Positions 7,562 through 23,262 are shown, numbered from the stretch's first letter. The stretch is DNA of 64,000 nucleotides from Candidatus Heimdallarchaeota archaeon (GCA_019058275.1 JAHLVW010000062.1:160001-224000); one strand, 5' to 3'. Program-made: numbers and translations. Notes: generated from the sequence alone by a model not told the origin.

Positions 7562-8872
7562 CTAATATACCAGCTTCTCCCCATCCCAAGCAGCTTCAAA
7601 CATCCGCCTATAGTCTTTTTCCGATACTGGACGGTAAGAAGTTAAAGTACAAACATCTTCCTTTGCATATTTAGCAAGAATGTCTAACTTGCTCATATAA
7701 TCTACTTTGCTAATTTTTGGGTTATCTAATTCTTTAACCGATGCAACTCCTCCAACAGAACGTTGAAAATCTTGTATAGCAGCGATTAGTGCTTCAAGTA
7801 ATTCCTGCCTTGTGGAATATTTCTCTTTAGAGACACCAAATAATGTACATAACTCAAGCCATTTTTCAGTTACCTTTGCTTGCCAAGCAACTGATTGTGC
7901 TGAAAGCATTCCTACTGATAAACCATGATGCACATGCATAACTGCACCAAAGCTATGACCTAGAGCATGTTCAATACCTGGCATTGCATTATTGAATCCC
8001 ATACCTGCATATGTTGCTGCCCATTGCATGTGTTCCAATGCTTCAAGATCTTTAGTTCCATATTTTACCAATCGAGGTAGATATTGAAGGACTTCCTTTA
8101 TAGCTACAATATTTATGGCATCTGATAGAGGAGTACCCCAATTCGATGTAATCGCTCCAATGCTGTGTGCTAATGCGTCTAAACCTGTTGCCATAATTAA
8201 AAATGGAGGTAATGTTTCAACAAATTGAGTGTCTAAAATAACATAATCAGGTAATGTTTCATCAACTGACAAACTTATTTTTTTCGGTGGGGTTCGTCTA
8301 GTATCTGTTATTATTGATGCTGTTGTTACTTCACTTCCTGTACCAATAGTGGTGGGAATTGCAACTAAAGCTTTTACTTTTCTCCTTAATCCAACAGCAT
8401 TATCAAGAATATCAATCTGTAGTAAATTTATTCCTGGTCTTTCATAAACAATCCATAGTGCTTTAGTAGCATCTAGAACAGACCCACCACCCACAGCAAG
8501 GAAAACATTTGGTTTAAATTTATTACAGATTTGAATTCCTTCATCAAGAATATCTAATGGAACTTCTGGCTGTACTCCACTCCAGATTTCAATTTCAAAC
8601 CCATGATTCTCAAAAACTCCTGCAATTCTATTATAAAATGTTTTTGTGAAAGAGTCAGCAATAATTAAGAGTCGTTTATCTCCTTCATCAAATCGTTTGC
8701 CTAGTTCTGTTGCAACATTAAGTAAACCTGTTTTACCACCAAAAATTCGGTTACCGTTGAACGTATTCATTATCCCTCTCATTGCTCTTGCCCCCATAAG
8801 TCCTACTACATCATTTAGAGCGGGACTTTCGTACCATGGTATTTCAAAATCCTCTTTAGTCATAAAAACCAC
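7562..8872 (-). CDS. Iron-containing alcohol dehydrogenase
   Basis: GGGSVLDATK, IPTTIGTGSEVT, GLDALAHSI, HALGHSFG, HHGL motifs. Confidence 0.92.
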   Translation of the reverse strand: MVFMTKEDFEIPWYESPALNDVVGLMGARAMRGIMNTFNGNRIFGGKTGLLNVATELGKRFDEGDKRLLIIADSFTKTFYNRIAGVFENHGFEIEIWSGVQPEVPLDILDEGIQICNKFKPNVFLAVGGGSVLDATKALWIVYERPGINLLQIDILDNAVGLRRKVKALVAIPTTIGTGSEVTTASIITDTRRTPPKKISLSVDETLPDYVILDTQFVETLPPFLIMATGLDALAHSIGAITSNWGTPLSDAINIVAIKEVLQYLPRLVKYGTKDLEALEHMQWAATYAGMGFNNAMPGIEHALGHSFGAVMHVHHGLSVGMLSAQSVAWQAKVTEKWLELCTLFGVSKEKYSTRQELLEALIAAIQDFQRSVGGVASVKELDNPKISKVDYMSKLDILAKYAKEDVCTLTSYRPVSEKDYRRMFEAAWDGEKLVY

Positions 8873-8981
8873 ATCAATTTTTTTGAATCTAAATTAATTG
8901 AGTTTCATTCTTTATAAAATTTCATCATGTAAAAGATGAATTTGTTATGAAATTGCTTAAAAGGACTAAGAAATTAGATTC

Positions 8982-10316
8982 TTAATTTGTTTCTATTTTG
9001 ATTTTTAGACCAAGTTCATTTAAATTCCTAAAGAATAGCTTCTCAACAGTTGATTCTTTAACAGTTCTACCAAAATTAATTACTAGTTTATCACCAAAAC
9101 TAACAACTGCACAACTAGAAGTAATGTTTGTACTTGGGGCTAATACCAATTCAAAGTTTTCAATTTCATCAGAAAATTCCTTTGGCATTGTCACCTTTCC
9201 CATGTTACTTAATTTTCCAGAAAATTGTTGTTCACCAAATCTATTATACAAGAATCCAGCAATTAATTGTTTTGCGAATAATGGTGCAGTCCTAATAATT
9301 GGGAATTGTTCACTACGGACATTCTGGGAAATGTGCTGATTAAGTTGTTTTTTACCAATTTCTTTTCGCATGGAATGATGCACTTGACTTAAGACTTCAT
9401 TGAAACTATGCCAACCTAATCTTGGATCAACTTCAGGTGCTATCATGAAAGTAAAATTCCTCATTGTTTTGGTAGGAAAGATTTTTCTTAAATTTACAGG
9501 AACAGCTATCCTTATTGGTTTCATATGGTTTTTTTGAATATCTGCTGGCAAACTAAATAAGATAGTTTGAAGTGAATCAAGATAAATAGTTGTTAATAAG
9601 TCAGTCATAGTGACTTTTTTCTCTCGAGATACTTTCAGTAGATCCGAAACAGACATTATTCCAGTCGTTACATGAAAGACTCTTTTTTTCTCGTGAGTAA
9701 AAGGTGGTTTGAAAGCAACACTTTTTGTCTTTGTGGAAGGATTCTCTTTTCGATAATTTTTCTTATATGCATAGTCATATTCAGAAGGGTCAGGTGTTTG
9801 GTTTATTCGAAAAATATCTTCCCAATCATTTGAATCTACACCTCGTAAGTGTAAATATTCAGCGACCAATGCTTTCAGAAAAGTTATTGCTCCAGTTCCA
9901 TCTGTTAAGCTATGATGAAATTCTACTGCTACTCTATTAAAATAAGCTCTTACTCTAAATGGAAAAACTCCTCGGTCATAAATTGGTAGTTTTTGACAGG
10001 GATATTTTGATTCTGCAACGATTTTAGGATCATTTGGGTTCTTCTCCCAATAATAATTGAACACACCAGTTCTAAGATGGACATCAAAATAGGGAAATCT
10101 AACCATAATACGATTCAAAGCAGTTTGAAGATCCTTAACATTAATTCGTTGTTTAAGTGTACAAGACATTCTGAAAATACTTGGGGACTTGTCTGAACTA
10201 AGCATACTAAAAATACTGGCAGCATTATCAAGTTTATACCAATTGAAAGGCCTCTTCATTCCATCAAAAAACTTAGGAGTAAAGTTTCTCGAATAGTCCT
10301 GTGCTACATCAGTCAT
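8982..10316 (-). CDS. Alcohol acyltransferase / condensation-domain (CoA-dependent acyltransferase) family protein
   Basis: WYKLDNAA start, HHSLTDG (HxxxD) catalytic motif, VPVNLRKIFP.KTMRNF, LSNMGKV. Confidence 0.8.
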   Translation of the reverse strand: MTDVAQDYSRNFTPKFFDGMKRPFNWYKLDNAASIFSMLSSDKSPSIFRMSCTLKQRINVKDLQTALNRIMVRFPYFDVHLRTGVFNYYWEKNPNDPKIVAESKYPCQKLPIYDRGVFPFRVRAYFNRVAVEFHHSLTDGTGAITFLKALVAEYLHLRGVDSNDWEDIFRINQTPDPSEYDYAYKKNYRKENPSTKTKSVAFKPPFTHEKKRVFHVTTGIMSVSDLLKVSREKKVTMTDLLTTIYLDSLQTILFSLPADIQKNHMKPIRIAVPVNLRKIFPTKTMRNFTFMIAPEVDPRLGWHSFNEVLSQVHHSMRKEIGKKQLNQHISQNVRSEQFPIIRTAPLFAKQLIAGFLYNRFGEQQFSGKLSNMGKVTMPKEFSDEIENFELVLAPSTNITSSCAVVSFGDKLVINFGRTVKESTVEKLFFRNLNELGLKIKIETN

Positions 10317-10413
10317 TGTTAAAAACTACTTGTAATCTAAGAACGACTGAACGTTAACATTGTCAAAAATAAACCTTTGCATTTCGAACATTTATGCACA
10401 TTAGCTGTAAATT

Positions 10414-10779
10414 TTATTCCAAAATTACTACATCATCTAATCGTTTGATCAACCATACACCTAATGGAAATCCAATTATTAGTAATGCACAAGCACTTGC
10501 TAAAATAATAACTGCTAATCCTAACCACCAACCAACTAGATAAAACCAAATTACTCCCAATATTAAGCGTTGACCTGTTTTCCAAGTTAATTCCGGATCA
10601 CGTTCTAATGAAAATACAAATTCTAATTTATCTAGTAACAAAAAACCTACAGGAGCAGTTATGGTTAATGCAACAAGTAGTATACCAATAATATACCAAA
10701 TGATAGAAACCCACCACCCAATTAGAATAGTCCAGAATATTCGAACTATCAAATTAGCCACAATATCTTCCAATTTCAA
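10414..10779 (-). CDS. YccF-like small membrane protein (internal duplication)
   Basis: Two repeats of 'IW..L.GWW....' followed by 'I..P.G..L'. Confidence 0.65.
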   Translation of the reverse strand: MKLEDIVANLIVRIFWTILIGWWVSIIWYIIGILLVALTITAPVGFLLLDKLEFVFSLERDPELTWKTGQRLILGVIWFYLVGWWLGLAVIILASACALLIIGFPLGVWLIKRLDDVVILE

Positions 10780-10843
10780 ACCCCAAAATAAGGATAGATT
10801 ACTATACTAATAATAATATTGGATAAAAGGAAAAGTTGGAGAT

Positions 10844-11236
10844 TTATTCTCCTGCTCTGCCATATATAAAACCCGGTGCACACCAACTACTTTTTTCATC
10901 CATTAACCAAGCGTTAAGTGAATCTTTTTCATAGACCACTACATCATTGACAATAAGCTTGATTTTCTCAATGCACCAATCATCATCTTTTCCAGTATAA
11001 GTTTTCTTACGAAAACAGAGGTATTGAAAATTTGAAGAATCAAAGTTCTCTGGTATATCTAATTCAAAAACATCTGTTTTTCCTTTTTCAAATTCATCAT
11101 ATTTTGGTATGTCTAATTGCCACTTATGACCACCAACATATAATTCCACAGGATTGTCGGTGTCACTTCTTCTTTCTTTACAAGTAGTTATTTCGATAAC
11201 TATTTTCTCAATTTTCTCATATTTTTGATCGGACAA
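10844..11236 (-). CDS. Stand-alone PLAT/LH2 domain protein
   Basis: ITT....SDTDNPV, 'DEFEKGKTDVF', 'DDDWCIEKIKL' match the PLAT consensus. Confidence 0.75.
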   Translation of the reverse strand: MSDQKYEKIEKIVIEITTCKERRSDTDNPVELYVGGHKWQLDIPKYDEFEKGKTDVFELDIPENFDSSNFQYLCFRKKTYTGKDDDWCIEKIKLIVNDVVVYEKDSLNAWLMDEKSSWCAPGFIYGRAGE

Positions 11237-11344
11237 AATTACACCTGCATTTAATAGATGAAGTAAAGTAAAACCTTTTGCTATAAATTAGTATGCCATT
11301 AGATAAATTAGGGAACAATTCTCTGAGCTTTATAAAACCATCCT

Positions 11345-11562
11345 GGAGCAAGATGTGACGGTTTCTCTGATGGTAATGAATGCAATTATGGAACGGATCC
11401 AACAGATCCAAATGATTTTCCATTTACTGCTACCCCCACTCCAAACCAACAAACACTACAACGAAGGAAACTGGTTACAAAGGTGGATTAATCGCAGGTT
11501 TCTCCTTAATAACTATGATAACTTTTGTAGTATTAATAGCAGATCAACGAAGAAAAAGATAA
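11345..11562 (+). pseudogene. Remnant of the 3' end of a paralog of the 1..2294 surface protein
   Basis: gatccaacagatccaaatgat and ggttacaaaggtgg shared with 2129-2210; encodes GTDPTDPND...TGYKGGLIAGF plus TM, with a frameshift. Confidence 0.8.
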
Positions 11563-11614
11563 ACAGATCAATGAAATACACTAGTATTTTTACTAGGCAG
11601 TTTCATTTTCTTTT

Positions 11615-12250
11615 TTATTTAGAACAACATTCCTCGATTTCTTTGACAATATCTGTATCTAAAACTAATGCTAGCCATCCAACATATTCAATCAAGCTAT
11701 CAATTAAATCCCAATTTAGTTTTCCTAGTTTCTCGAGTGTTTTTTTGTTAGCGTTTTCAAATATATCAATTATCAGTCTGTTATTTTCAATAGTTAATTT
11801 GTTGATTAATTCACCTACTGCAGAAGAAGTCAATTTTGTACCGAATTTCTGTTCAAGTAATTCTTGTACAATTTCATTGAATAATTGCATTTCTTTTTCC
11901 GGTAGCTTTTTCTTTTCATGTCCAAGATATCTTTTCAAGAAAATCTTTGCAGTTCTTATGTATATTGTTTCACTTAGTAGCTCATCTGCTCCTTTTGAGG
12001 TTATTCTTTTTCCTGCTTTTGCAACAAAACCGTTCTCAATAAGCTCTTTTAGATAACGATAGATTGACTTATCTGATTTACTAACTCCACTTTTCTCAAA
12101 ATCTTCTACTAATTCTTTTACTGTTCTTGGACCTTGTCTTAGGAATTTTATTATATACTTATAGTTTTCTTCGCTATAGACTAGATCTACTTGCTCTTGT
12201 GTTAGTATGTTTACTATTGTCTGTTTGTAGGTTATTACATCTTGACTCAT
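11615..12250 (-). CDS. Winged-helix transcriptional regulator with C-terminal helical domain (paralog 1)
   Basis: IIKFLRQGPRTVKEL...KSIYRYLKEL..NGFVAKAG; clearly homologous to 17417..18040. Confidence 0.85.
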   Translation of the reverse strand: MSQDVITYKQTIVNILTQEQVDLVYSEENYKYIIKFLRQGPRTVKELVEDFEKSGVSKSDKSIYRYLKELIENGFVAKAGKRITSKGADELLSETIYIRTAKIFLKRYLGHEKKKLPEKEMQLFNEIVQELLEQKFGTKLTSSAVGELINKLTIENNRLIIDIFENANKKTLEKLGKLNWDLIDSLIEYVGWLALVLDTDIVKEIEECCSK

Positions 12251-12272
12251 TCCAATTCACCACTTTGTTTTT

Positions 12273-12420
12273 TTCTCATTCTTTGTTTCACTCATTCTCA
12301 ATATAATATATATCATTCTCATATATTTAAATATTGTTCTTGCATTGTAATATTTAATTCTAATACTATGATATATATTTCTCATTTTTTGAGAAACACT
12401 TATATATAAGTATGAGAATA
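12273..12420. promoter_or_regulatory. Divergent promoter with phased TTCTCA boxes, TTCTCA-N5-TGAGAA palindrome, TATA box and downstream TGAGAA half-site
   Basis: Boxes at 12273, 12295, 12316, 12337 (TTCTTG), 12358 (TTCTAA), 12379; TGAGAA at 12390 and 12413; CTTATATA at 12399. Confidence 0.75.
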
Positions 12421-12452
12421 GCATCTTAAAAAACAAGACGGAGAAATAAAAA

Positions 12453-12550
12453 ATGAGACAAAAACTCTATCACAAAAAACAATTAAAGATCAAATCAAAA
12501 AATACCATAATAAAGTTAGAATGGATTTTGCATTAGTTTATGGTCGTTAA
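12453..12550 (+). CDS. Small basic peptide A (about 32 aa, MRQKTLSQKTIKDQIKKYHNKVRMDFALVYGR if one A is restored in an A-run)
   Basis: GGAG RBS, ATG at 12453; the -1 frame carries the family C-terminus; the span is 98 nt, one short of in-frame; hairpin overlaps the stop. Confidence 0.6.
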
Positions 12551-12573
12551 ATCGGTTTCGATTTTAACGATCA
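12541..12573 (+). terminator. Stem-loop overlapping the stop codon of peptide A
   Basis: TGGTCGTTAAATCG-gttt-CGATTTTAACGATCA. Confidence 0.55.
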
Positions 12574-12785
12574 AACTATTTCTTTAATATTCGTTCTTGC
12601 TTTTTTTATGTACTAATTTTAGCAAGTTTTCTGATAGTCTTCATCAACATTTTGCCTAGAATTATTTAATTTCAGATATCAGTTACTAATTTGCCTATTG
12701 ATGTGGTACGGGTAATTGTTGAAGAATATCTTGAATTTGATATCATAAATGATTATATTCATTTTAACTTAGTGAATTTTTTTTC

Positions 12786-13451
12786 TTAAAAAAGCTTAAT
12801 TCTATCTCGAGGAATATTCACAGGTTTCATATGTGATGGAATCGCATAATCCCACTCAAAGTCTAGTATTTTGTTTAATGTTTTTAAATAAAGATCATAA
12901 TCATCATGGAATCTTTTGAACACAGGTTGGAGTCTGAAAAACATATGCATTATTGTATCCCCAAGGAAAAGTAATTTCTGTTTTTCAGCAAGTATGCAAA
13001 TGTGACCATAAGTATGCCCTGGTACATGAACAGCTCTTAATTGGAGTTCTTGGTCTATAATTTCATTATGTTCAACTAGTTTATTTGGTTTTATTGGGTC
13101 AATTTCTTGTTCTTCAATAAAGTATTTTGCTTCGTCTTTATGACAGATAATTTCAATACGTTCTAAAGGTGATTCGGGAGCACTTATTGTAGTTAGCTCA
13201 TAAATTAAAGTAGGTAATCCACCAGTATGATCTAAGTGTCTATGTGTAAAAACAATACGCTCAATCTTCTCTAGAGAGTCCCACCTCTTTCTTATCTTTT
13301 TTATAATTACAGAAATATCTTTCTCAAGTCCTGTATCAATTAAAGTTAGCATACCATTCTTCTTCTCTACAACAAAGATAGGAACTGAATAGATTCCTTT
13401 TCCAGAAACACTATACAAATCACTTGCGATTTCTTTTACCATGATAGTCAC
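12786..13451 (-). CDS. Metallo-beta-lactamase-fold hydrolase
   Basis: LIDTG, THRHLDHTGG, PGHTYGH, FLGD, PSH motifs. Confidence 0.9.
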   Translation of the reverse strand: MTIMVKEIASDLYSVSGKGIYSVPIFVVEKKNGMLTLIDTGLEKDISVIIKKIRKRWDSLEKIERIVFTHRHLDHTGGLPTLIYELTTISAPESPLERIEIICHKDEAKYFIEEQEIDPIKPNKLVEHNEIIDQELQLRAVHVPGHTYGHICILAEKQKLLFLGDTIMHMFFRLQPVFKRFHDDYDLYLKTLNKILDFEWDYAIPSHMKPVNIPRDRIKLF

Positions 13452-13544
13452 CTAATTGATGTTAAAGGAATTCCTAACTCTTTTATTAATTTTCATAAAG
13501 AAATAAAGTATTCTAAAAAGGAAGAACCTCAAAAAATGAAAGAA

Positions 13545-13576
13545 GAAGAATGATCGGTCTTAAGCAATCATTCTTC
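13545..13576 (-). terminator. Hairpin followed by a T-rich tract downstream of the ABC binding-protein gene
   Basis: GAAGAATGAT...ATCATTCTTC inverted repeat. Confidence 0.5.
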
Positions 13577-13599
13577 ATGATTGAAAGATAATTGATCTA

Positions 13600-15384
13600 C
13601 TATTTTCTCTTTTTTAAGAAGAAAATTTGAGTTGCACCTGCTAAAGCAAGAATGCTGATAACTGCGACTAGTCCTACACCAGTTGTTTCGGTTGTTGTTG
13701 TTAAATCAAAACCAGCAGCTTCTATTTGTTCTAAAGCAAGATTAATACTATATTCATATGGTTCTAATGATTCATCAAAACCGATTGATACTTTTGGCCA
13801 GTGAGTTACTCCTGGGTAACCCATACCATCAAGTATTTCATCGACAATGACTTGTCTTGGAACCAAATGACTAATAGCCTTTCGAATGTGTCTACCGGAT
13901 TCCTCACTTGCAATTGGACATAATTCACCTGTACCTATGTATGGATGAAGCATGTTTACACTCATTTCTTGGTTTCCAGGAGCAGCTACTAAGGAGTAAT
14001 CAATGCCGGAAACACCTTCTATGTCTGATCTTTGAACAAAGAATTCGGAATCAATGATATCAATTGCATCGCCTGCGAGAGCAGAAATGGCACCTTCTTT
14101 ATTGCTATAGAATTCAAAGTAAATATCTTCAAAGTTAGGATCTTCTCCATACCAATCTTTGAAGTATGGATTTCTCTCCAAATGAACTACTCCATTTGTA
14201 CCATCCCAATTCTCTAGGTAATAAGGACCGGTTCCCATGAGTTTATTAGGATCTGAAGTAGCCCAAGTAACAGCTTGAGTTGCGTGATCTTCTGGAGCAA
14301 TAGCACCCCAGATGTGTTCTGGAAGTAATTGAATTCCTAAATTACCATCTTGGAATACATAAGGTTGTAAGAAAGTTATGGTAAAATCATCATCATCAAT
14401 TTTCACAACAGAATCATTGTCCCAGTAAATAGTATTGAATGAATAGGTTGTATGACCTAAACTTTCAGTAGCACCTAATTGGTAAGTGTAGATAACATCA
14501 TCAGTTGTAACAGCTGTACCATCTGCCCATTTAGCATTGGCTACAAGCTTGCAGTTATATGTTAAACCATCAGAGCTACTAATATCTTCAATCAAACGTG
14601 GAGTAAAAGCTCGATCAGCTAAAACAGATCGTTCAACCAATGCACCATAGATTTGAGTCAACCATTGAGCATCATAAGTTGATTCAATTAAATAAGGATG
14701 AAAATCAACAAAGTCAGCAGGAACTGCGAAATGCAATTCAGTAGCACTACCTAATGACCAGTTCTCCATTGGTTGATAAGCAGAAGCCCATAAAAGTGGA
14801 TCCCAGCCATCTAAAACTGGATCATGAGCGTAGAGATTAACGTTGTAGACGATACAAATGCTTGGTTGATCATCATAAAGAATTTCTTGAATTTCTTCAC
14901 CATAATGCATACGATCTGCCCATGCAAAAGATTGTGAATAATTTCCAACAGCCCAATCAAATTCTTGATTGTTATATTGATAATAATTACCACCATATGG
15001 TGTAATTCCATCAGAAGTAAAAAGTCCTGTTGGATCAAAATCAAGTCCCCAACCATAACCTATGAAAAGAATGTCAAATCCACCCTCAGCATAACTTGGT
15101 ATTGGGTATGGACCTGGATGATTCCATGTCCTTGGACCGATTTGTGCCCATCCTGTGTGGTCAAAAACATCAACAGCAATACCTATTTTTGGTAATTGTT
15201 CTACCATCAAAGTTGACCATTGATTTCTTGCAGGATTGGTATTTGGCGCAAGAATACTTATTGAAAAGAATGGTCCTGGATTTGCTGCTTGAACAGGTGT
15301 TGAAATAACTGACATTAAACCTAAGCATGTCAATAAAGCTAACGGAAGGAACATTCTTTTTAAATCCTTCTTGATTAATTTCAT
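13600..15384 (-). CDS. ABC transporter substrate-binding protein, family 5 (OppA/DppA-like), C-terminally membrane-anchored
   Basis: Signal peptide; KWADGTAVTTDDVIYTY, GTGPYYL..W, LERNPYF, RKAISHLVPRQ.IV; Thr linker, TM and KKRK tail. Confidence 0.9.
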   Translation of the reverse strand: MKLIKKDLKRMFLPLALLTCLGLMSVISTPVQAANPGPFFSISILAPNTNPARNQWSTLMVEQLPKIGIAVDVFDHTGWAQIGPRTWNHPGPYPIPSYAEGGFDILFIGYGWGLDFDPTGLFTSDGITPYGGNYYQYNNQEFDWAVGNYSQSFAWADRMHYGEEIQEILYDDQPSICIVYNVNLYAHDPVLDGWDPLLWASAYQPMENWSLGSATELHFAVPADFVDFHPYLIESTYDAQWLTQIYGALVERSVLADRAFTPRLIEDISSSDGLTYNCKLVANAKWADGTAVTTDDVIYTYQLGATESLGHTTYSFNTIYWDNDSVVKIDDDDFTITFLQPYVFQDGNLGIQLLPEHIWGAIAPEDHATQAVTWATSDPNKLMGTGPYYLENWDGTNGVVHLERNPYFKDWYGEDPNFEDIYFEFYSNKEGAISALAGDAIDIIDSEFFVQRSDIEGVSGIDYSLVAAPGNQEMSVNMLHPYIGTGELCPIASEESGRHIRKAISHLVPRQVIVDEILDGMGYPGVTHWPKVSIGFDESLEPYEYSINLALEQIEAAGFDLTTTTETTGVGLVAVISILALAGATQIFFLKKRK

Positions 15385-15454
15385 TTTTTATACCTCTTAA
15401 ATGTAGGGATCTCTATTTGGGGTAGATTTCCCTACCCTATCTATCATTAATAGG

Positions 15455-15483
15455 ATATATAGGTGTTCTCATAACTTTGAGAA
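15455..15483 (-). promoter_or_regulatory. TTCTCA-N6-TGAGAA operator adjacent to the TATA box of the binding-protein gene
   Basis: Minus strand reads ttctca-aagtta-tgagaa-cacctatatat, the same layout as the peptide promoters. Confidence 0.7.
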
Positions 15484-15731
15484 CATGCTCTACTTTATTT
15501 GTCACTATTTTCTAAACTTGTTGAGAATTTAATAATTTTTTACTTCTCAAACAATTTTGAATATTAAACAAGAAGATTAATGATAGACGAAATAGTGTAG
15601 AAATAATTTTTTTCAATTTTGGTTAAGATTTTAACTAATTTCAATATGTAATGTTTAAAAAACTAGAACGCAATAAAGCTTATAGATAAAAAATAGTTTA
15701 CTAAAACAATTGATACTTTGGAGGATGTTAA

Positions 15732-16139
15732 ATGAACGCTTATGATCCAAGAGTTTCTCATTATAGTCGAACAGTTGCATTATTGCTCTGTTGGTTTCTA
15801 GGTGGTTATGGAGCTCATAGGTTTTACGTGGGTAAAGTAGTCTCTGGTTTCTTATGGTTATGCACCGGTGGTCTTTTTGGAATTGGTTGGATAATTGATC
15901 TAATTATGATTGCAACTGGCAGTTTTACTGATGATCATGGGAGAGTCGTCTATAGTTGGGATGGTGGAACACCTCAACCAGCACAAAGAACTGGTCCACC
16001 TCCACAACATGCACAACAACCAAGACCTATTCCTGAACCTGAGAAAAAGAGCACAACTGCTTTTTGTAGTACTTGTGGTGCAGTGGTTGATCGTAGTGAA
16101 ACATATTGCAAACATTGTGGTGCTCAAGTTTTGAATTAA
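15732..16139 (+). CDS. TM2 (NINE) domain protein with C-terminal zinc ribbon
   Basis: [33 protein letters not shown]; CSTCG...CKHCG. Confidence 0.9.
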
Positions 16140-16273
16140 AACACCACAATTCATTTTTATTTTTTTTTGTGATATTTTTTCATAAGCATCCGATTTTTAC
16201 GCTCATAATTGGAATATAATATAAACACGAAAAAACGTTAGTATATTATGCTTAAAATTTTGAGGGTGGTATT

Positions 16274-17340
16274 TTGAAGTTGAAATTTATTGGAATATTT
16301 TTGATTATTTTTTCCTTAACAATTTCATATCCATGTATATCATCACATTCACAACCTGGAAATGAGCCATCTCTCATTAAACCAAAGGCTTTTGCTTTTA
16401 ATGCGAATCATTTAGTAGTGAACCAAGTTAGATTTAATATTATACCAGATTCAGCAATAATTAATGCTAAGAATACTTTACATATAGCATATGGTCATAC
16501 ATCACATGGAAGTCAAATTATAACAGGTATGAATGACTTGCCTGCCTACAAAGAAAGTTTAGGTGGAACCGAAGGGTTATATGATTGGAATGAAGGGGGA
16601 ATTGATGGAGCTTTAGATATAGATGATTACTTTGTTTCAGGTGATTTGGGTAATCCGGACATAAGTTCTTGGACGGAAAGAACTGAAGAATATCTCAACA
16701 ATTCAGCAAATTCAGATGTCAATGTAGTTATGTGGTCATGGTGTGGACAAGTATCTACAGCGACTGAAGCTGACATTGATTTATACCTTAGTCTTATGAC
16801 TGCTTTAGACTTTAGAATTATATCCAGATGTTTATTTTATTTATATGACTGAGCATACAGATGGAACTGGATTAGATGGTAATTTACATATTCGCAATAA
16901 TCAAATACGAGCTTATTGTGAAGCAAATTATAAGATTCTCTTTGACTTTGCTGATTTAGAATCATGATCCTGATGGCAATTATTTTGGTAATAGGAATTG
17001 TACTGATAATTGTGATTATGACGCAAATGATGATGATAATCCTTGGAATGATGGAGCTAATTGGGTTACTGAGTGGCAAAATGAAAATCCAGATGATTGG
17101 TATGATTGCTCTTCAGCTCACAGTCAACCTTTAAATGCAAATATGAAAGTCTATGCTACCTGGTGGCTATAGGCTAGTTTAACAGGTTGGTCTGATCCAT
17201 CTATCACTCCTACACCAAATCCCACTCCAACACCAACTGACGAAACACCAATGTTTGGTGGAGTTATTGGTTTAGCTATTTTTTCTTCATTTATTTTTAT
17301 AACAATTATACTAAGAAGAAATCTAAACAAAAACAAATAA
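16274..17340 (+). pseudogene. Secreted membrane-anchored uncharacterised protein, disrupted
   Basis: HIAYGHTSHGSQI and VVMWSWCGQ; continues in other frames (LFDFAD, CSSAHSQPLN, WWL*A, PTPT linker, TM); frameshifts near 16810 and 16965, TAG near 17170. Confidence 0.7.
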
Positions 17341-17416
17341 AAATAGTATAATACGTAGTATCAAAGAACTCGTGAGAAAAAACACTCACTTGTTTCTTAT
17401 CTTTCTTTAATTGCTA

Positions 17417-18040
17417 TTATTGACAACACTGATTAATTTCATCTGGAATATCAATGTTAAGACTAATTGCTAACCAACTAACAAACTCTTTGACAAAATT
17501 AATTTTTTTCATATCTAAAACAGTAAATTCCTCTAAGGTTTCAGAGTCAGCATTTGAAATTAAATCAATAAAAACCTTATTTCTTTCTGCATTTAGTTTA
17601 TTGCCAAGCTTAGCCAATTTTATTGCAGATAATTCTTTGCCCTTAAAGAGATTTTTCAAAAGTGATAAAGCTACTATATATTCTGGACATGCAACACCTT
17701 CTGGACATTCTTTACAAGCTTTTGTTAGAAATACCTTAGCTGATCTCAAGTAAATTGTCTCACTAATAAGATCACTTTCATCTATTGATGTAATTCGCTT
17801 TCCTGCTTTTGCTACCAATTTTAATTTTAGAAGCTTATTTAAATAACGATAAATTGATTTTTCAGACTTCTCCATATCAAGCTTTTTGAAAGCTTGAACT
17901 AAATCACTAATAGACATTGGACTTTTTGATAAGAATTTCACTGTATATACTAAGTTTTGATCATTAAAACTTTCAAATTGCTCCTTGCTTAATATTAAAA
18001 CTGCCTTTTGTTTATATGTTATTGCTTCTTGTTTTAACAT
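17417..18040 (-). CDS. Winged-helix transcriptional regulator with C-terminal helical domain (paralog 2)
   Basis: ITYKQ, KSEKSIYRYL, VAKAGKRITS, SETIY.R.AK, WLA..L..DI..EI..CC shared with 11615..12250. Confidence 0.85.
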   Translation of the reverse strand: MLKQEAITYKQKAVLILSKEQFESFNDQNLVYTVKFLSKSPMSISDLVQAFKKLDMEKSEKSIYRYLNKLLKLKLVAKAGKRITSIDESDLISETIYLRSAKVFLTKACKECPEGVACPEYIVALSLLKNLFKGKELSAIKLAKLGNKLNAERNKVFIDLISNADSETLEEFTVLDMKKINFVKEFVSWLAISLNIDIPDEINQCCQ

Positions 18041-18065
18041 TATTAAACCTCCTTTTTTGTGTTTA

Positions 18066-18173
18066 TTTTCAATACTATTAATATAATTCTTAGTTTTAAG
18101 TAATTATCGGTCTCAATAATATAAAAATCTTTTCTCAATTGTATGAGAAAACTTATATAAATTCATGAGAATA
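18066..18173. promoter_or_regulatory. Divergent promoter with phased boxes, TTCTCA-N6-TGAGAA palindrome, TATA box and downstream half-site
   Basis: Boxes at 18066, 18087, 18110, 18132; TGAGAA at 18144 and 18166; CTTATATA at 18152. Confidence 0.75.
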
Positions 18174-18209
18174 GTTTCCTAGAAGTTTGATAAAAAAGAG
18201 GTGACAAAA

Positions 18210-18296
18210 ATGCGACATGAAAAGAAAATCAAACGAATAATAAAGAAAGAACAAGAAAACGCAAGAATAAAATTTGCATTATATACAGACAGGTAA
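18210..18296 (+). CDS. Small basic peptide B, 28 aa: MRHEKKIKRIIKKEQENARIKFALYTDR
   Basis: GAGGTG RBS, intact ORF, dedicated promoter, hairpin at 18291-18327 over the stop, homology to peptides A and E. Confidence 0.75.
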   Translation: MRHEKKIKRIIKKEQENARIKFALYTDR

Positions 18297-18546
18297 ATAT
18301 TTGGTCTAGTACGACAATTATTTGCCTAAAAACTTACTAACCTGTTTTCTAATAAAAAAAGGCAAAAAATGATTCTTGCGAAAAACTAATTCTAAAAAAA
18401 TTCTTTGCTTAAGTGTATGATGGATCTATATAATTAGATAGTATTGTGTCTTATTTGAATCATGGTTCTTTCCAATCATCTTTTCTTTCTTTATTCAATG
18501 ATTCCTTATGCTTATCAGCTAATATGTTATACTTTTCAAAGAATAT

Positions 18547-18677
18547 TTCTCATACGCGTTAAAAAGCTTTCTCAGTGCTTACAAATATTATTCTTATATG
18601 TTTAAATATATAGTCTCTTAATCATAAACACATATTCTCACTATGATGAGAAATATTTATATACTAGTATGAGAATA
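18547..18677 (+). promoter_or_regulatory. Third copy of the operator/promoter, with boxes at an exact 22-bp period
   Basis: TTCTCA 18547, TTCTCA 18569, TTCTTA 18591, GTCTCT 18613, TTCTCA 18635; TGAGAA at 18647 and 18670; TTTATATA between them. Confidence 0.75.
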
Positions 18678-18713
18678 ATTTCCTAAGGATGTAGACAAAA
18701 TATGGGTGATTTA

Positions 18714-18815
18714 ATGAAGAAAAACAAGAAATCCATAACAAGTAAAGACATTCAAAAGGAATTAGAAAAAGTCAAGATACTCTTGACTATGTATTATTCA
18801 GATGGATTGATTTAG
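18714..18815 (+). CDS. Small basic peptide C, 33 aa: MKKNKKSITSKDIQKELEKVKILLTMYYSDGLI
   Basis: GGTGA RBS; first ORF after the third promoter; aligns ungapped but divergently with peptide A. Confidence 0.65.
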   Translation: MKKNKKSITSKDIQKELEKVKILLTMYYSDGLI

Positions 18816-18839
18816 CAAGATTCCAGGAGGGGATCACTA

Positions 18840-18911
18840 ATGAATGATAGAAAGAAAATAAAAGATCAAATCAAGAAGGAATTAATCTCTTCCAAAGAGA
18901 GTAGACAGTAA
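18840..18911 (+). CDS. Small basic peptide D, 23 aa: MNDRKKIKDQIKKELISSKESRQ (lacks the hydrophobic C-terminus)
   Basis: GGAGGGG RBS; IKDQIKK is identical to peptide A. Confidence 0.6.
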   Translation: MNDRKKIKDQIKKELISSKESRQ

Positions 18912-18946
18912 AGATCGGCATAAAAAGTAGGTAGGATGGTCCCATA

Positions 18947-19036
18947 TTGAATAAACAAAAGAAAGCTTACAAACAAAAAATCCAAACAGATAAGGAAAAA
19001 ACCAGAATGAGATTCGCCCTATTAACAGGCAAATAA
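18947..19036 (+). CDS. Small basic peptide E, 29 aa (TTG start): MNKQKKAYKQKIQTDKEKTRMRFALLTGK
   Basis: GGATGGT RBS-like sequence; family C-terminus RMRFALLTGK; followed directly by a hairpin and T-tract. Confidence 0.7.
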   Translation: MNKQKKAYKQKIQTDKEKTRMRFALLTGK

Positions 19037-19070
19037 GAAGCGTTCCATCCATGAGGAACGTTTCTTTTTT
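19037..19070 (+). terminator. Hairpin plus oligo-T terminator closing the peptide C-D-E unit
   Basis: GAAGCGTTCC-atccatga-GGAACGTTTC-TTTTTT. Confidence 0.7.
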
Positions 19071-19194
19071 CTTGATCTTATTTTAACTTTGTAGCTTATT
19101 GTTTTAGCTTTTTAGAATTAATGTCTCTGATTTTCAATAGTATAAATTTTTAAGGGAAATTATCTATAATACTATTAGAATAGATGATTTTTTT

Positions 19195-20175
19195 ATGAAC
19201 TGTAAATTCAAGATTTTTATGTTGAATATTATAGTGGTTCTAGTACTTATTTTTGCTAATTTCTCACATTCAGATGCAGCAACGAGATCATGGGATGTAG
19301 GTGATTTGTTTTTATTTAGCTATTCAAATTATTCCTATGCAAACACTACTAATACTGACTTTGTTGTGAGCGATATATTAGTAGTTTCAATTAAAGAAGA
19401 AGGTACTTATAATATTACTCGAGTAGATTTAAGTAATAATACCTATGCTTCTATTTTTACTGGAGTTGCCGGTTCTGGTTCCAATTTATTGAATTATTTT
19501 GGTTGGGAAGAATTCACTAATTATCAATTAGATCCAAATAGCTTTTTCACAATCACTTATGATTGGGATTATGGACATAATGAAATCGTACTAACGTATT
19601 TCAACTTTGGATTAATAGAAAATTGGCCATTTATTGAACCACAGGGGATAGAATTAATTTATTCATGAGCGAGATGTTTAACGAATCTGAAATTGTTGAC
19701 ACAGTTGTTGATCCTTATGAACCTTTAATTCATAATATTACTTTTGGAGATTTCATGAGTAGTGTTGAATCCTTTAGTATTATGAATAAGAATACACTAG
19801 CAGAAGCTGAACTGCAATTCAAGAACAACACTCGAAAATGGACTTTTGAATTTGATCTTTCCAATGTTCTAATGGATTCTGTATATAACATCACATTAAG
19901 GTACGATGAATATTTATCCTTATCAATCAATAATCTACAATTTTGAGTACGAATATACCGATGGTGGAGTACTTGATCGTGTGTTCAGAACAACTACAAT
20001 GGATATAACAATTGAAAATCGATTGTTGCATGTCTACTTTGAACGAAAAATGGTTTCTGGTGATTTCAAATCATTAGAAGCAAATTATCCTTATCTTATG
20101 GTTTTACCAGTGATTTTCCTGATTATATTAGTAATCAAACGGACTAAATCAAAGAATAATGGGAGGATAAAATAA
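19195..20175 (+). pseudogene. Surface protein paralog 1 of a four-gene tandem array (two frameshifts)
   Basis: Three ORF pieces (19195-19668, 19665-19946, 19906-20175) are collinear with 20176..21141. Confidence 0.85.
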
Positions 20176-21141
20176 ATGAGTAAGAAAATCAAATTAGTAA
20201 TCAGTTCACAAATGATACTATTTATATTTATAATAAGTACTAGTCAATTCTCTGTTGCAATGGACCCCTCATGGGAAGAAGGAGTTTTTTATCCTTTTAA
20301 TTTTGTCTTTATATATAAGCACCATCAGCATGATATGAAAAATGATATTTTTGATGAATATGAAATCGAAAACAAAGATGAATATGTTTTTAATATAACT
20401 TATATTGATAACTCAATGCAATGGTTTCATACTATTATCTTTGATTCTCATGGCACTAGTTCTGTGTGGCTTAACTATAACGTCGATGATTTTGCTGATA
20501 ATGTACTAACAATCAGTAATATGTTTGATGTAGATTATGAATGGGATTTTGAACATAATCAAACAGTTTTAACAGACTTTGATTTTCACTTTTTTCCATT
20601 ATATTTCATTGATCCAAATTGGACGACCTATAATAGTCGCTTTGCTGATGTTTTCAATGGCTCTGAAATCGTTGCTACTGTTGCAGATCCTTATGAACCA
20701 ATCACTCATAATTTTACTTTACAAGACGTTTTATCTTTAGCATCTGATTACTCAATCATGGGTCAAAATGATTTAGCGTTAGCAAAAGAGAAGTTTACTG
20801 ACAATAATATTAATTGGACATTTTATTTTGACTTCTCAAACGCTATTAAGGATAATGTCTTCAATACTTCTTTAGGTTTTGATAGTTACGTTCCATATGA
20901 AACATATACAATTGACTTAGGATTTGACTACTCCCCTGGAGGTATTCTTGACCAATTCCGATATAATTTTGTGTACGAAATTATAAAAGATGAAGTTTTT
21001 AGACATTATGAAGTTGTAGAAGAAGCAAATACTGGAGGATTTCCAACAGTAGAAACACCTGGCTTAACGTATTTATTGGCAATTCCTGCAATATTCACAA
21101 TAGTGTTAGTAGTAAAATACACAAAAAAGAGGAAGATGTAA
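20176..21141 (+). CDS. Surface protein paralog 2 (signal peptide, acidic body, PG-TM-K/R C-terminal anchor)
   Basis: YEWD...N.TVL..FDF, YFIDP.W, SIMG, WTF.FD.S, Y..GG.L motifs shared across the array. Confidence 0.8.
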   Translation: MSKKIKLVISSQMILFIFIISTSQFSVAMDPSWEEGVFYPFNFVFIYKHHQHDMKNDIFDEYEIENKDEYVFNITYIDNSMQWFHTIIFDSHGTSSVWLNYNVDDFADNVLTISNMFDVDYEWDFEHNQTVLTDFDFHFFPLYFIDPNWTTYNSRFADVFNGSEIVATVADPYEPITHNFTLQDVLSLASDYSIMGQNDLALAKEKFTDNNINWTFYFDFSNAIKDNVFNTSLGFDSYVPYETYTIDLGFDYSPGGILDQFRYNFVYEIIKDEVFRHYEVVEEANTGGFPTVETPGLTYLLAIPAIFTIVLVVKYTKKRKM

Positions 21142-21195
21142 TAATCTTCTTTTCTTTTTATTTTTTACTTCAACTTTTTATTAGGAAATTCTTAT

Positions 21196-22224
21196 ATGAA
21201 AACATTTGCCAGTCTATTTAGTAATGAGATGAAACTCATGAGCCAAAAAAAGAGTATTTTGATGTTGACTAATTTTATTATTATAGCTCTTTTAGTAAGT
21301 AATGCAATAACAAGTATTGCTATTGAAAGAGAGTACAATGCAGGTAATATCTTTACATGGGGTTTCAATATAGAAGAAGTAATGACTAACACATACTTAG
21401 ATCTTGATCTAGTCTATATTAATGATGAAACTGACAGTGGTGATATCCAGCTAAATATCACTGCCATAGATACACTAACAAAAAACTATGAGGGTATCTG
21501 GTCAGATGATTCTGGAAGTGGTAGTCCTGGAACATATGATTATAGTTTGGATGATTTGGGAGATCGTTTTGAGACAGTGGACCTCTTTGATATTGATTGG
21601 GAATGGGACTATCTAAACAATGTTACTGTTCCAGGTGATTTTGATTTCATGCTTAATACACCATATCTAATGTGGCAAGTTTTTGATCATTCATATCTTA
21701 TCGATCCCAAATGGGGAGATATAAATGATGCAATATTTGCAGGATTCAATCTTACCTATCAAGTAGAGACCTTTTACAATCCATACAATGCAAATATCAC
21801 CTACAATTATACACTAGCTGATGTTTTTGATAATATTTCTTTCAAAATCATGGGTAAAGATACATTAGCTGATGCAGAAGCAAAATTCACTGATACAATT
21901 TACAAATGGAACTTTGTATTTGACTTGTCTGGATTCTTAATGGAAGAATACTGGAATGGTACTACAGACATTTACCAAGCCTATGAAACATATATTGTAA
22001 GTTTATCCCTCGAGTATTCTGAGGGGGGTGTATTACAAGAATTAGAACACACTACAACGACTCTAATAACAATTGATGGAATTCAAGAGGAAGTAAATTA
22101 TAAATTTAAGCTTGCTTTAGGTGGAATGAAATCAGCAACTGTTAATTTTGCAACAATTTCAGCAGTAATTGGTTTGTTTACAATAAGCATTGTAATAGTT
22201 GTAATCAGAAGAAGAAAGAGATAA
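21196..22224 (+). CDS. Surface protein paralog 3 (likely start 21238)
   Basis: Same conserved motifs; C-terminal TM plus RRRKR. Confidence 0.8.
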   Translation: MKTFASLFSNEMKLMSQKKSILMLTNFIIIALLVSNAITSIAIEREYNAGNIFTWGFNIEEVMTNTYLDLDLVYINDETDSGDIQLNITAIDTLTKNYEGIWSDDSGSGSPGTYDYSLDDLGDRFETVDLFDIDWEWDYLNNVTVPGDFDFMLNTPYLMWQVFDHSYLIDPKWGDINDAIFAGFNLTYQVETFYNPYNANITYNYTLADVFDNISFKIMGKDTLADAEAKFTDTIYKWNFVFDLSGFLMEEYWNGTTDIYQAYETYIVSLSLEYSEGGVLQELEHTTTTLITIDGIQEEVNYKFKLALGGMKSATVNFATISAVIGLFTISIVIVVIRRRKR

Positions 22225-22302
22225 TCTCTTTTCTTCCTTTTTCTTTTATGACGGTTCGGAAATTCTTATATGACAATATCCTTTTTAGTCACTTGCTAAA
22301 AG

Positions 22303-23262
22303 GTGATGTTTTTGAACAAGAAAACTATTTTGATGTTGACCAATTTATTTGTTATTATTTTATTTGCAAATCATGCTTTATCTATTCAAGCAGCTTCCCT
22401 TAATATTGCAGCAGGTGATGAATATTTATGGGGTGAGCTTTCCAAGGTAATACTATTAGAAACTGATCCAGATACTGGACTTACTTCCACCTTCACTGTT
22501 ATGGTCGAAAAGGATTGGAATTTGGAAATAACCGATTTAAGAGTTTCTCAAAAAGAATATACCGGAAAATGGACAGATGGGACAGGTTTTGAAGCTGTTA
22601 CAGATCATGATTATGACTGGAGAGAACTTGGCTACAATTTCTTAGCAGAAGATCTGTTTTGGGCAGATTATGAATGGGATGATGATATAAATACCACAGT
22701 TCTAGTTAGTTTTGATTTCGATTATGAACCAGTATATTTGATTGAACCAGAATGGTCTGATATAAATCCTAGCATGAAGAGCATGTTCAATCTTTCACAT
22801 ATCTTAGACACTGTTGTTTATCCTGACAATACAAGTATAATCTATGAATTTACTTTGGGAAGTTTTCTTAATGATACATCCTTCAGTATTATGGGAAAGG
22901 ATACAGTTGATAAAGCCAAAAAGCAATTTAATTATAGCAATAAAAAGTGGACATTTCTGTTTGATCTCTCAGGAATTATGCTTGATGTATATTTTGATGG
23001 AACAGAAATTGTAAAAAAATATTTTGATTCTTATGTCCAAACCTTTGAATTTGAATATTCAACTAATGGAGTATTGCAATCAATAACAAAAGAAGTTGAA
23101 TCACTTTCAATTCAGGGTGATATTAAAGTGGAAACTATTGTTGGTTATTATTTTGCTATTGGTGGAGCAAAATCAGTTAATGCGAACTTTGATACAATCG
23201 CAGCTTTAACAGGTTTATTCACAATAAGTTTAGTTTTTGTTATAATTAGAAAAAGAAGGTAG
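22303..23262 (+). CDS. Surface protein paralog 4
   Basis: Same conserved motifs; signal peptide nearly identical to paralog 3. Confidence 0.8.
   Translation: MMFLNKKTILMLTNLFVIILFANHALSIQAASLNIAAGDEYLWGELSKVILLETDPDTGLTSTFTVMVEKDWNLEITDLRVSQKEYTGKWTDGTGFEAVTDHDYDWRELGYNFLAEDLFWADYEWDDDINTTVLVSFDFDYEPVYLIEPEWSDINPSMKSMFNLSHILDTVVYPDNTSIIYEFTLGSFLNDTSFSIMGKDTVDKAKKQFNYSNKKWTFLFDLSGIMLDVYFDGTEIVKKYFDSYVQTFEFEYSTNGVLQSITKEVESLSIQGDIKVETIVGYYFAIGGAKSVNANFDTIAALTGLFTISLVFVIIRKRR

Follow-up and report, generated by a model that had tools for sequence, protein, structure and literature searches.

A palindromic operator shared by winged-helix regulators, an orphan solute-binding protein and a small-protein family in a Heimdallarchaeota genome

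Introduction

Two genes for winged-helix regulators, five very short open reading frames (ORFs) and the gene of a solute-binding protein were found close together at positions 11615-19070 of a 64,000-nucleotide (nt) stretch of DNA from a Candidatus Heimdallarchaeota archaeon (GCA_019058275.1, JAHLVW010000062.1:160001-224000), and the whole of this stretch is called the window in the following. The question raised by the locus is whether the short ORFs encode peptides that are sensed by the regulators as exported and re-imported signals, as was proposed in an initial annotation of the DNA, or small proteins whose production is controlled by the regulators. The explanation favoured here, which is considered slightly more probable than its opposite, is that a family of winged-helix repressors acts on a palindromic operator and that the small proteins are regulated outputs and not the ligand. 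The window corresponds to contig C55:160001-224000 of a 4.1-Mb assembly (G000), and the region has a GC content of about 31%. The 77 homologues of regulator 1 were every one from Asgard or Heimdall archaea, carrying names such as Heimdallarchaeota or Asgard group archaeon, and the Asgard origin presumed for the window was thereby upheld.

Results

The operator and its pairing with the regulator family

Four exact palindromes of the type TTCTCA-N5/6-TGAGAA were found in the window (Table 1) against 0.05 expected, and none of 100 shuffles reached four. A TATA-like box was found to begin 3-4 nt after the end of each palindrome, all four being placed as the initial annotation had described, and in the three promoters of the small ORFs the TATA box was followed after 3-4 nt by the presence of a third TGAGAA half-site, then by a GGTG/GGAGG ribosome-binding site and the small ORF. 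The four intergenic regions (1123 bp) were found to contain 18 half-sites, against 1.15 expected from the genome-wide frequency, with a spacing of 21-23 bp, which is two helical turns. The palindrome at 18132 was common to back-to-back promoters, one directed towards the gene of small protein P3 and the other towards that of regulator 2, and TGAGAA half-sites were present on both sides of the TATA box of regulator 1. The recurrence of extra half-sites every 21-23 bp around the TATA boxes, those of the regulators included, argues for auto-repression. Near-palindromes at 63092-63135 were found to be intragenic and were dropped.

Homologues of the regulator, falling into six families, were found in 39 of the 151 Asgard genomes that were sampled for both the regulator and the peptide profile. 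A set of 29 foreign loci in other Asgard genomes was picked by regulator protein homology alone, and in 22 of these loci the palindrome was found about 70-130 bp upstream of the regulator start, in genomes of 30-49% GC; the chance expectation, estimated from the pattern length, was about 0.01 per locus. The palindrome is therefore assigned as the operator of this regulator family, for which the comparative sequence evidence is strong. Exact palindromes numbered 14 in the window's genome, 7 in the sister species G123 and 7 in the third genome G151 (GCA_035528035.1), as compared to 0, 0 and 1 for the control pattern, respectively. The distant family f16 was found to have a promoter with palindrome, TATA-like box and third half-site that drives the regulator alone, with no small ORF opposite, so auto-regulation is, as judged from these promoter sequences, the ancestral state. 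A divergent small ORF opposite the f16 regulator had been considered and was rejected, the conserved motif being the 3′ end of the upstream gene. Upstream of three distant regulator paralogues of the window's genome (C8:43568, C61:106105 and C22:103995), other palindromes of the TGTCAT..ATGACA type were present, which suggests operator divergence within the regulator family.

Members of the regulon were recognised by the presence of the palindrome in the promoter. In the window's genome, exact palindromes just before a TATA box were found to precede the genes of the binding protein, of three secreted proteins (one with LVIVD repeats, one of DJ-1/PfpI type and a beta-lactamase-fold hydrolase) and of an 82-residue protein, as well as small-protein genes on contigs C1 and C84. 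One-mismatch sites were found ahead of a GNAT-like 294-residue gene and of the small-protein array beside tandem regulators on C96. In G123, the palindrome was found ahead of the GNAT-like orthologue (58% identity), and others were found ahead of regulators and secreted proteins. In G151, one palindrome was common to the regulator 2 orthologue and a divergent 32-residue P3-like gene, and the GNAT-like orthologue and the binding-protein orthologue were each found to contain a palindrome of their own. With the operator present at 22 of the 29 foreign loci and kept before the binding protein in a second species, the single operator that the initial annotation had described for the peptides and the binding protein was borne out, and it is common to the regulators as well. 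Genes beside the regulators in loci L038 and L052 were not confirmed as GNAT-like orthologues by tblastn at 1e-5 and are not claimed. On contig C84 (14577-14616, locus L064) a full operator promoter was found to drive a divergent 37-residue Arg/Lys-rich ORF with a Tyr/Trp/Gly-rich end beside a tRNA gene, and this ORF did not match the small-protein family profile.

The regulators

The two regulators were paralogous, as initially annotated, and contained an ArsR-type winged helix. Regulator 1 scored 25.5 bits against the Pfam family HTH_5, above the gathering cut-off of 22 bits, whereas regulator 2 remained below it with 19.4 bits. The AlphaFold2 (AF2) model of the regulator, with a predicted local distance difference test (pLDDT) score of 80, was found to contain a winged helix at residues 18-105 followed by the presence of five helices at residues 118-209. 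The sole candidate for a full-length structural match was PH1932 of Pyrococcus horikoshii (Foldseek E 3.6e-7, 201 columns, template-modelling (TM) score 0.41-0.45), and the comparison of the regulator with PH1932 (VIA) gave Z 10.9 with 173 residues aligned and a root-mean-square deviation of 8.3; the sequence-profile match to PH1932 was marginal (E 0.0077) and covered the winged helix alone. The winged helix by itself resembled CzrA, SmtB, RosR and Phr, with a core Z of about 10 for CzrA and SmtB. Membership of PadR was not reached (16.8 bits against a cut-off of 27 bits), and the structural matches to PadR and VanR were weak (E about 1e-3, TM about 0.3). No TPR or HTH_3 family was found in the regulators by Pfam, and about 90 residues in five helices follow the winged helix in the model, in agreement with the earlier remark that these are not recognisably RRNPP/TPR proteins.

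A Cys-Cys C-terminus was conserved in the subclade of regulators 1 and 2, these often being the only cysteines in the protein, while Cys-Phe or Cys-Tyr was found at this place in distant families and Ile-Phe or Leu-Phe in another subclade. The window's genome was found to contain 11 regulator paralogues.

The small-protein family

All five tiny ORFs described by the initial annotation were found to exist, but P1 was frameshifted in the assembly and P4b did not contain the C-terminal motif of the family. At the P1 site the window contained a run of six A nucleotides where the paralogue on contig C1 contained seven, contigs from three sequencing runs were found to insert the extra A, and the assembly GCA_019058195.1, which is 99.9% identical over 3.1 kb, contained an intact 32-residue P1 (protein P0085) ending in the family's C-terminal motif. 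The break in P1 is therefore an assembly error or a minor variant. An array of three genes paralogous to the P4 operon was found on contig C96 beside tandem regulators.

With a profile of 13 members, at least 13 copies of the family were found in the window's genome (E 2e-13 to about 0.03), and with the 18-member alignment A3, 6 copies were found in G123 and none in the other 149 sampled Asgard genomes. A profile search of 1.84 billion public protein representatives gave 39 clusters of 27-58 residues with the same pattern. The top match, P0078 (696 residues), was a repeat protein containing part of the motif 11 times and was treated as spurious. The members were typically 27-37 residues long, commonly about 29, and lysine-rich, with an IKxQIKK-like N-terminal part followed by the presence of an [AT]R[MI]K[FY]AL..G motif at the C-terminus. 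This motif was located 0-3 residues from the stop codon and was the best-conserved portion across the paralogues, the N-terminal part being variable. In four foreign contigs, whose regulators were about 60-80% identical to the C1 paralogue, the palindrome, the TATA box and the half-site preceded a tandem pair of ORFs, each 29-34 codons long and transcribed away from the regulator. GGTG/GGAGG ribosome-binding sites were present, a conserved T-rich terminator closed the unit, and some of these ORFs had already been predicted by gene callers. In eight ortholog or paralog pairs, substitutions at codon positions 1, 2 and 3 numbered 47, 33 and 80, respectively. From the profile matches, codon-position bias, ribosome-binding sites, terminators and public clusters, the tiny ORFs are, at the level of sequence, real genes of one previously undescribed small-protein family, and the grouping into a single peptide family given by the initial annotation was retained.

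The AF2 model of the small protein was a single helix at residues 2-30 (pLDDT 86.6). The net charge had a median of +6 and the mean hydrophobicity was -0.33, and an amphipathic helix was considered and rejected, the hydrophobic moment not being above that of shuffles (median z -0.1). No N-terminal hydrophobic segment or signal sequence was found in 49 family members, which agrees with the lack of a classical signal sequence remarked on earlier, and no exporter or processing protease adjoined the small-protein genes in the loci that were read. No known family was found for the small proteins, the matches in Pfam being at chance level only, the profile search of the PDB giving nothing below E 0.8 and the ESM Atlas giving no usable match; no Rfam match was found in 11000-19500.

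Small-protein genes were found beside a regulator in the window (P1, P3 and P4), on contigs C1 and C96 and in loci L055-L058, L093 and L101, whereas at least six of the at least 13 genes in the window's genome were not adjacent to these regulators. The complex prediction for two copies of the C1 regulator with the cognate 32-residue peptide, both supplied as alignments, gave 0.01 against a mark of 0.32, which speaks neither for nor against binding. In a 722-nt public contig (ENA ERZ23498365, locus L106), the gene at 203-463 encodes the 86-residue P0095, in which a signal-peptide-like N-terminus is in frame with a family member; a GGAGG ribosome-binding site was found at both ATGs, and P0095 may be a secreted variant or an over-extended gene call. 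At C107:9849-9950 of the window's genome (L072), a family member was found to be followed after about 20 nt by a short Lys/Glu-rich ORF and a 306-residue protein (8766-9686) with an HTH_5/DUF7347-like C-terminus, and the same gene order was present in G123 (L080).

A second promoter type

A second promoter type was found to contain GTCACA-N3/4-TGTGAC followed by the presence of CTC..TGAGTCT and GTGAATC.GCTTTATATA, together with a conserved 5′ leader. It was found in the window's genome at C69:4407, C22:71513, C102:1651, C1:115818 and C55:21999 (L069-L074) and in G123 at L076, L078 and L082. The small-protein pairs on C69, C22 and C102 and their G123 orthologues were found to contain this promoter and were not beside these regulators. 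The second promoter was also present ahead of an unrelated 32-residue basic ORF and of bactofilin-domain genes.

The solute-binding protein

The product of the gene at 13600-15384 was found to contain an N-terminal signal-like segment and a C-terminal membrane anchor. The initial annotation had placed an OppA/DppA-like binding protein under the operator, of which the operator (O2) and the assignment to family 5 were confirmed (SBP_bac_5 137.9 bits, cut-off 32.4 bits), but the narrower name was not, no NCBIfam equivalog cut-off being reached (Opp4A 60 of 650 bits, NikA 51 of 393 bits, OppA 24.5 of 947 bits). Its ligand may be a peptide, nickel or an opine. No Opp permease or peptide exporter was found linked to the cassette, the window containing only an unrelated ABC-2 pair 40 kb away, and the genome was found to contain about 14 family-5 binding proteins (18 SBP_bac_5 matches) and, elsewhere, 13 matches to the Opp/Dpp-type permease domain BPD_transp_1. 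The G151 orthologue (63% identity), with its own exact palindrome followed by a TATA box, was located 1 kb from the pair of regulator 2 orthologue and P3-like gene, and family-5 binding proteins were also present near the cassette in L055 and L058.

The gene at 15732-16139, which is divergent from that of the binding protein, encodes a TM2-domain protein containing a Pro/Gln-rich linker and, at the C-terminus, a zinc ribbon. Since a near-palindrome (15510-15527) and a half-site (15544) were located on its side of the intergenic region, the TM2-domain gene may, from sequence, also be a target of the operator.

Features of the region and neighbouring genes

Table 1. Positions in the window of the regulator, small-protein and binding-protein genes and of their promoter elements.
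Feature	Position	Strand	Details
Regulator 1 (211 aa)	11615..12250	-	N-terminal ArsR-type winged helix, C-terminal five-helix domain, Cys-Cys end; Pfam, AF2, structure match
Regulator 1 own promoter	12273..12321	-	Three TGAGAA half-sites (minus strand), 21-22 bp apart, around TATA box
Operator O1	12379..12418	+	Palindrome 12379-12395; TATA box 12400-12408; third half-site 12413-12418
Small protein P1	12453..12550	+	Frameshifted here, A6 run 12474-12479; intact 32-residue ORF with A7 (protein P0085)
Orphan membrane-anchored family-5 solute-binding protein (594 aa)	13600..15384	-	SBP_bac_5 137.9 bits
Operator O2, binding-protein promoter	15453..15483	-	Palindrome 15466-15483; TATA box 15453-15461
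Near-palindrome and half-site	15510..15549	.	One-mismatch 15510-15527; half-site 15544-15549; 22 and 44 bp from O2
Regulator 2 (207 aa)	17417..18040	-	Paralogue of regulator 1, Cys-Cys end; 41% identity, E 2e-48
Operator O3, back-to-back promoters	18132..18171	.	Palindrome 18132-18149; TATA box and half-site towards P3 (18153-18171); TATA box and degenerate half-site towards regulator 2 (minus)
Small protein P3 (28 aa)	18210..18296	+	Followed by hairpin and T-tract; family profile E 3e-11
Two upstream TTCTCA half-sites	18547..18574	+	22 bp apart
Operator O4	18635..18675	+	Palindrome 18635-18652; TATA box 18657-18665; third half-site 18670-18675
Small protein P4a (37 aa)	18702..18815	+	First gene of three-gene operon 18702..19036
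Small protein P4b (23 aa)	18840..18911	+	Second gene of operon; without C-terminal motif
Small protein P4c (29 aa)	18947..19036	+	Third gene of operon; TTG start
P4 operon terminator	19040..19075	+	Hairpin and T-tract; read directly from sequence

Upstream of the cassette (8982-11236), the window was found to encode a protein of 444 residues that contains an HHxxxDG motif and weakly matches alcohol acetyltransferase (condensation-like), a YccF membrane protein and a PLAT/LH2-domain protein of 130 residues that stands alone, the gene of the last being syntenic with the cassette in L056 and L107. At 16810, inside the ORF 16274-16852, contigs of two runs (X1 and X5) were 4 nt shorter than the window, and the secreted 192-residue ORF together with the overlapping ORF at 16845 may be one gene frameshifted in the assembly, or a strain variant. 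Downstream (19195-23262), a run of paralogous genes was found whose products contain signal-like N-termini and membrane-anchor-like C-termini and match no Pfam family, the first paralogue being apparently split into three ORFs (19195-20175).

Discussion

In the favoured explanation, the approximately 210-residue proteins would be dimeric ArsR/PH1932-type winged-helix repressors with TTCTCA-N5/6-TGAGAA as operator, a palindrome that abuts the region of the B recognition element (BRE) and the TATA box, with further half-sites two helical turns away, upstream and between the TATA box and the transcription start. The bound regulator, probably spreading cooperatively on one face of the DNA, would exclude the TATA-binding protein (TBP), transcription factor B (TFB) or RNA polymerase. 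The regulon contains the regulators' own genes (putatively auto-repressed, often through a back-to-back promoter with one palindrome), the binding protein, the GNAT-like 294-residue protein and secreted proteins (beta-lactamase-fold hydrolase, DJ-1/PfpI, LVIVD repeat) and, in one Heimdall lineage, the small-protein genes. A signal sensed by the C-terminal helical domain with its conserved Cys motif would lift the repression, and the small proteins would exert their effect in trans, most probably within the cell. Of this, the pairing of operator and regulator, the composition of the regulon and the status of the small ORFs as genes can be regarded as shown, and repression as opposed to activation, the cue and the function of the small proteins are what we infer.

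The small proteins were ranked as regulated outputs because the peptides are rarer than the regulator (2 against 39 of the 151 genomes), a second promoter drives part of the family, the C-terminus is conserved and no export genes are linked. The regulator and its operator appear, from their distribution, to be much older than the peptides, which seem confined to one genus-level lineage. The search beside regulator homologues in other Asgard genomes, as proposed in the initial annotation, succeeded for the operator, and divergent peptide genes were found beside regulators in that one lineage. Several points weigh on the other side. The regulator-operator pairing and the behaviour of the promoters are read from sequence, repression rather than activation is deduced solely from the position of the sites, and TFB can also be recruited by a site located just upstream of the BRE. 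Being short, the peptide profile may overlook diverged peptides in other lineages. In addition, divergent, operator-sharing peptide genes beside regulators at six or more loci in four genomes, together with a co-regulated orphan binding protein, are the look expected of a peptide-sensing loop.

Such a loop could be a peptide-pheromone circuit, in which the small proteins would be exported, trimmed to a hydrophobic C-terminal piece, caught by the co-regulated orphan binding protein and imported via an Opp-type permease encoded elsewhere, and in which binding of the piece by the regulator's C-terminal domain would cause derepression, auto-induction and the production of secreted 'public goods'. 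This would account for the divergent regulator and peptide genes on one operator in the window, on C1 and in L055-L058 and L093, for the positive-feedback wiring of peptide promoters under the regulator's own operator and for a binding protein without adjacent permease in a genome with 13 permease-domain matches elsewhere, a protein that resembles in this respect PrgZ/TraC of the enterococcal pheromone plasmids. The retention of the operator by its G151 orthologue, the family-5 binding proteins close to regulators at L055 and L058, the abundance of secreted proteins in the regulon, as in that of PlcR, and the one public 86-residue variant with an in-frame signal-like N-terminus point in the same direction. 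However, no signal sequence, exporter or protease was found beside the genes, and all 29 residues are conserved with a C-terminus near-identical in paralogues, so no pair specificity is left; the putative mature signal would be the most conserved part and the N-terminal part the variable one, which implies complete cross-talk, the opposite of pherotype specificity. Of the at least 13 genes, at least six lie apart from these regulators under the other promoter, operator-bearing regulators are present in many lineages without a match to the peptide profile, and the regulator contains no TPR domain. In family f16, moreover, the promoter serves the regulator only. On these grounds the exported and re-imported signals of the initial annotation are so far left unsupported, and a pheromone circuit is regarded as unlikely; it would be the first archaeal peptide cell-cell signalling, in the Heimdall lineage closest to eukaryotes, through a non-TPR repressor and independent of the bacterial RRNPP systems. 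Quite unlikely as well is an intracellular feedback partner, a small helix which would bind the C-terminal domain of the regulator as anti-repressor or co-repressor with no need of export. The tight linkage and the common operator fit this, and the peptides diverge alongside the adjacent regulator, the C1 peptide being nearest to that of L056 (the regulators of C1 and L056 are 77% identical) and P3 pairing with the G151 peptide beside the regulator 2 orthologue, but synteny by itself would be expected to produce such co-divergence. Regulators of the peptide-linked subclade end in a Cys-Cys of their own, and another family member is located immediately ahead of a different HTH_5-like-domain protein; against this, many peptide genes are unlinked to regulators, and the co-regulated binding protein would be left without a role.

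Two further readings were considered. Leaderless cationic antimicrobial peptides of archaeocin-like type, made together with secreted hydrolases on release of the repressor, would agree with a median charge of +6 and a length of about 29 residues, with the tandem multi-gene arrays and many paralogues and with co-regulation of the secreted beta-lactamase-fold hydrolase and other secreted proteins; the reading is very improbable, as the mean hydrophobicity is negative (-0.33), the helical hydrophobic moment does not exceed that of shuffled sequences and neither an adjacent ABC exporter nor an immunity gene was found in the loci read. Least probable of all are cis-acting leader (ribosome-arrest) peptides or dual-function small RNAs, the conserved C-terminus acting in the ribosome tunnel: the motif keeps a fixed distance (0-3 residues) to the stop, the peptides are about as long as is needed to fill the exit tunnel, and some copies are located 20-30 nt upstream of larger genes, namely those of a bactofilin-domain protein (C22) and of the 306-residue HTH_5-like-domain protein (C107), yet P1, P3, the P4 operon and most copies stand alone, ending in a hairpin and a conserved T-tract with no downstream gene.

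Comparison with known systems

The RRNPP systems of Firmicutes include Rgg/SHP, PlcR/PapR and PrgX/PrgQ, the last with the dedicated OppA-like PrgZ. The present locus resembles these in the short peptide gene divergent from the regulator, in the palindromic operator common with an autoregulated regulator, in the several paralogous cassettes per genome and in a regulon containing an orphan OppA-like binding protein and many secreted proteins. It differs in that the regulators are 210-residue proteins with an ArsR/PH1932-type winged helix and an approximately 90-residue helical domain, whereas RRNPP regulators contain an XRE-type HTH and TPR. The peptides here are hydrophilic, with a charge of +6, conserved over the full length and without a signal or hydrophobic core, at least six of the at least 13 peptide genes have no linked regulator, the promoters are of the archaeal TATA/BRE type, no exporter or protease is known and peptide binding is hypothetical.

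PH1932 (PDB 1uly/2cwe) and other archaeal two-domain regulators of ArsR type such as Phr (2p4w) are similar in architecture, with about 190-210 residues and an N-terminal winged helix followed by a C-terminal helical domain, and for PH1932 the structural alignment tentatively extends over the full length (Foldseek E 3.6e-7, Z 10.9). The sequence similarity is marginal, the operator sequence is another one, and the present family is confined to Asgard archaea and has a C-terminal Cys motif of its own. Phr represses through binding over the core promoter (PMC6316755). The ArsR/SmtB thiol or metal sensors (CzrA, SmtB, SqrR, BigR, HlyU) are likewise autoregulated repressors on palindromic operators with a comparable winged-helix core (Z about 9.3-10.5), and by analogy the conserved cysteines near the regulator C-terminus could sense a metal or redox state, but those sensors contain about 100 residues without the extra five-helix domain, and genes for metal efflux or sulfide were not encountered in the present regulon.

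For the small proteins, a comparison is offered by bacterial small regulatory proteins of less than 50 residues, which bind larger proteins (PMC10730256). The Asgard family is similar in size, in its stand-alone regulated units and in its helical structure, and it differs in having no sequence relationship to these and in forming a family of at least 13 copies under two operator-controlled promoter types. From leaderless cationic bacteriocins it differs in the lack of an amphipathic or hydrophobic helix and of an ABC exporter beside the loci read.

Significance

To our knowledge, almost nothing is known about gene regulation in Asgard archaea, and the assignment of regulator, operator and regulon made here is new, defined and comparatively validated. 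Also new is the lineage-specific, mostly unannotated family of proteins of about 29 residues, with 13 or more genes per genome that are controlled by two distinct operator systems; proteins as small as these are routinely overlooked in annotation. If the small proteins were ligands or signals, the locus would represent the first peptide-sensing circuit in archaea, and if they are not signals, they would still form a tightly repressed new effector family. Since they share their regulation with secreted hydrolases and a binding protein of the cell surface, they point to an extracellular programme that can be switched by an archaeon which ferments peptides in sediment.

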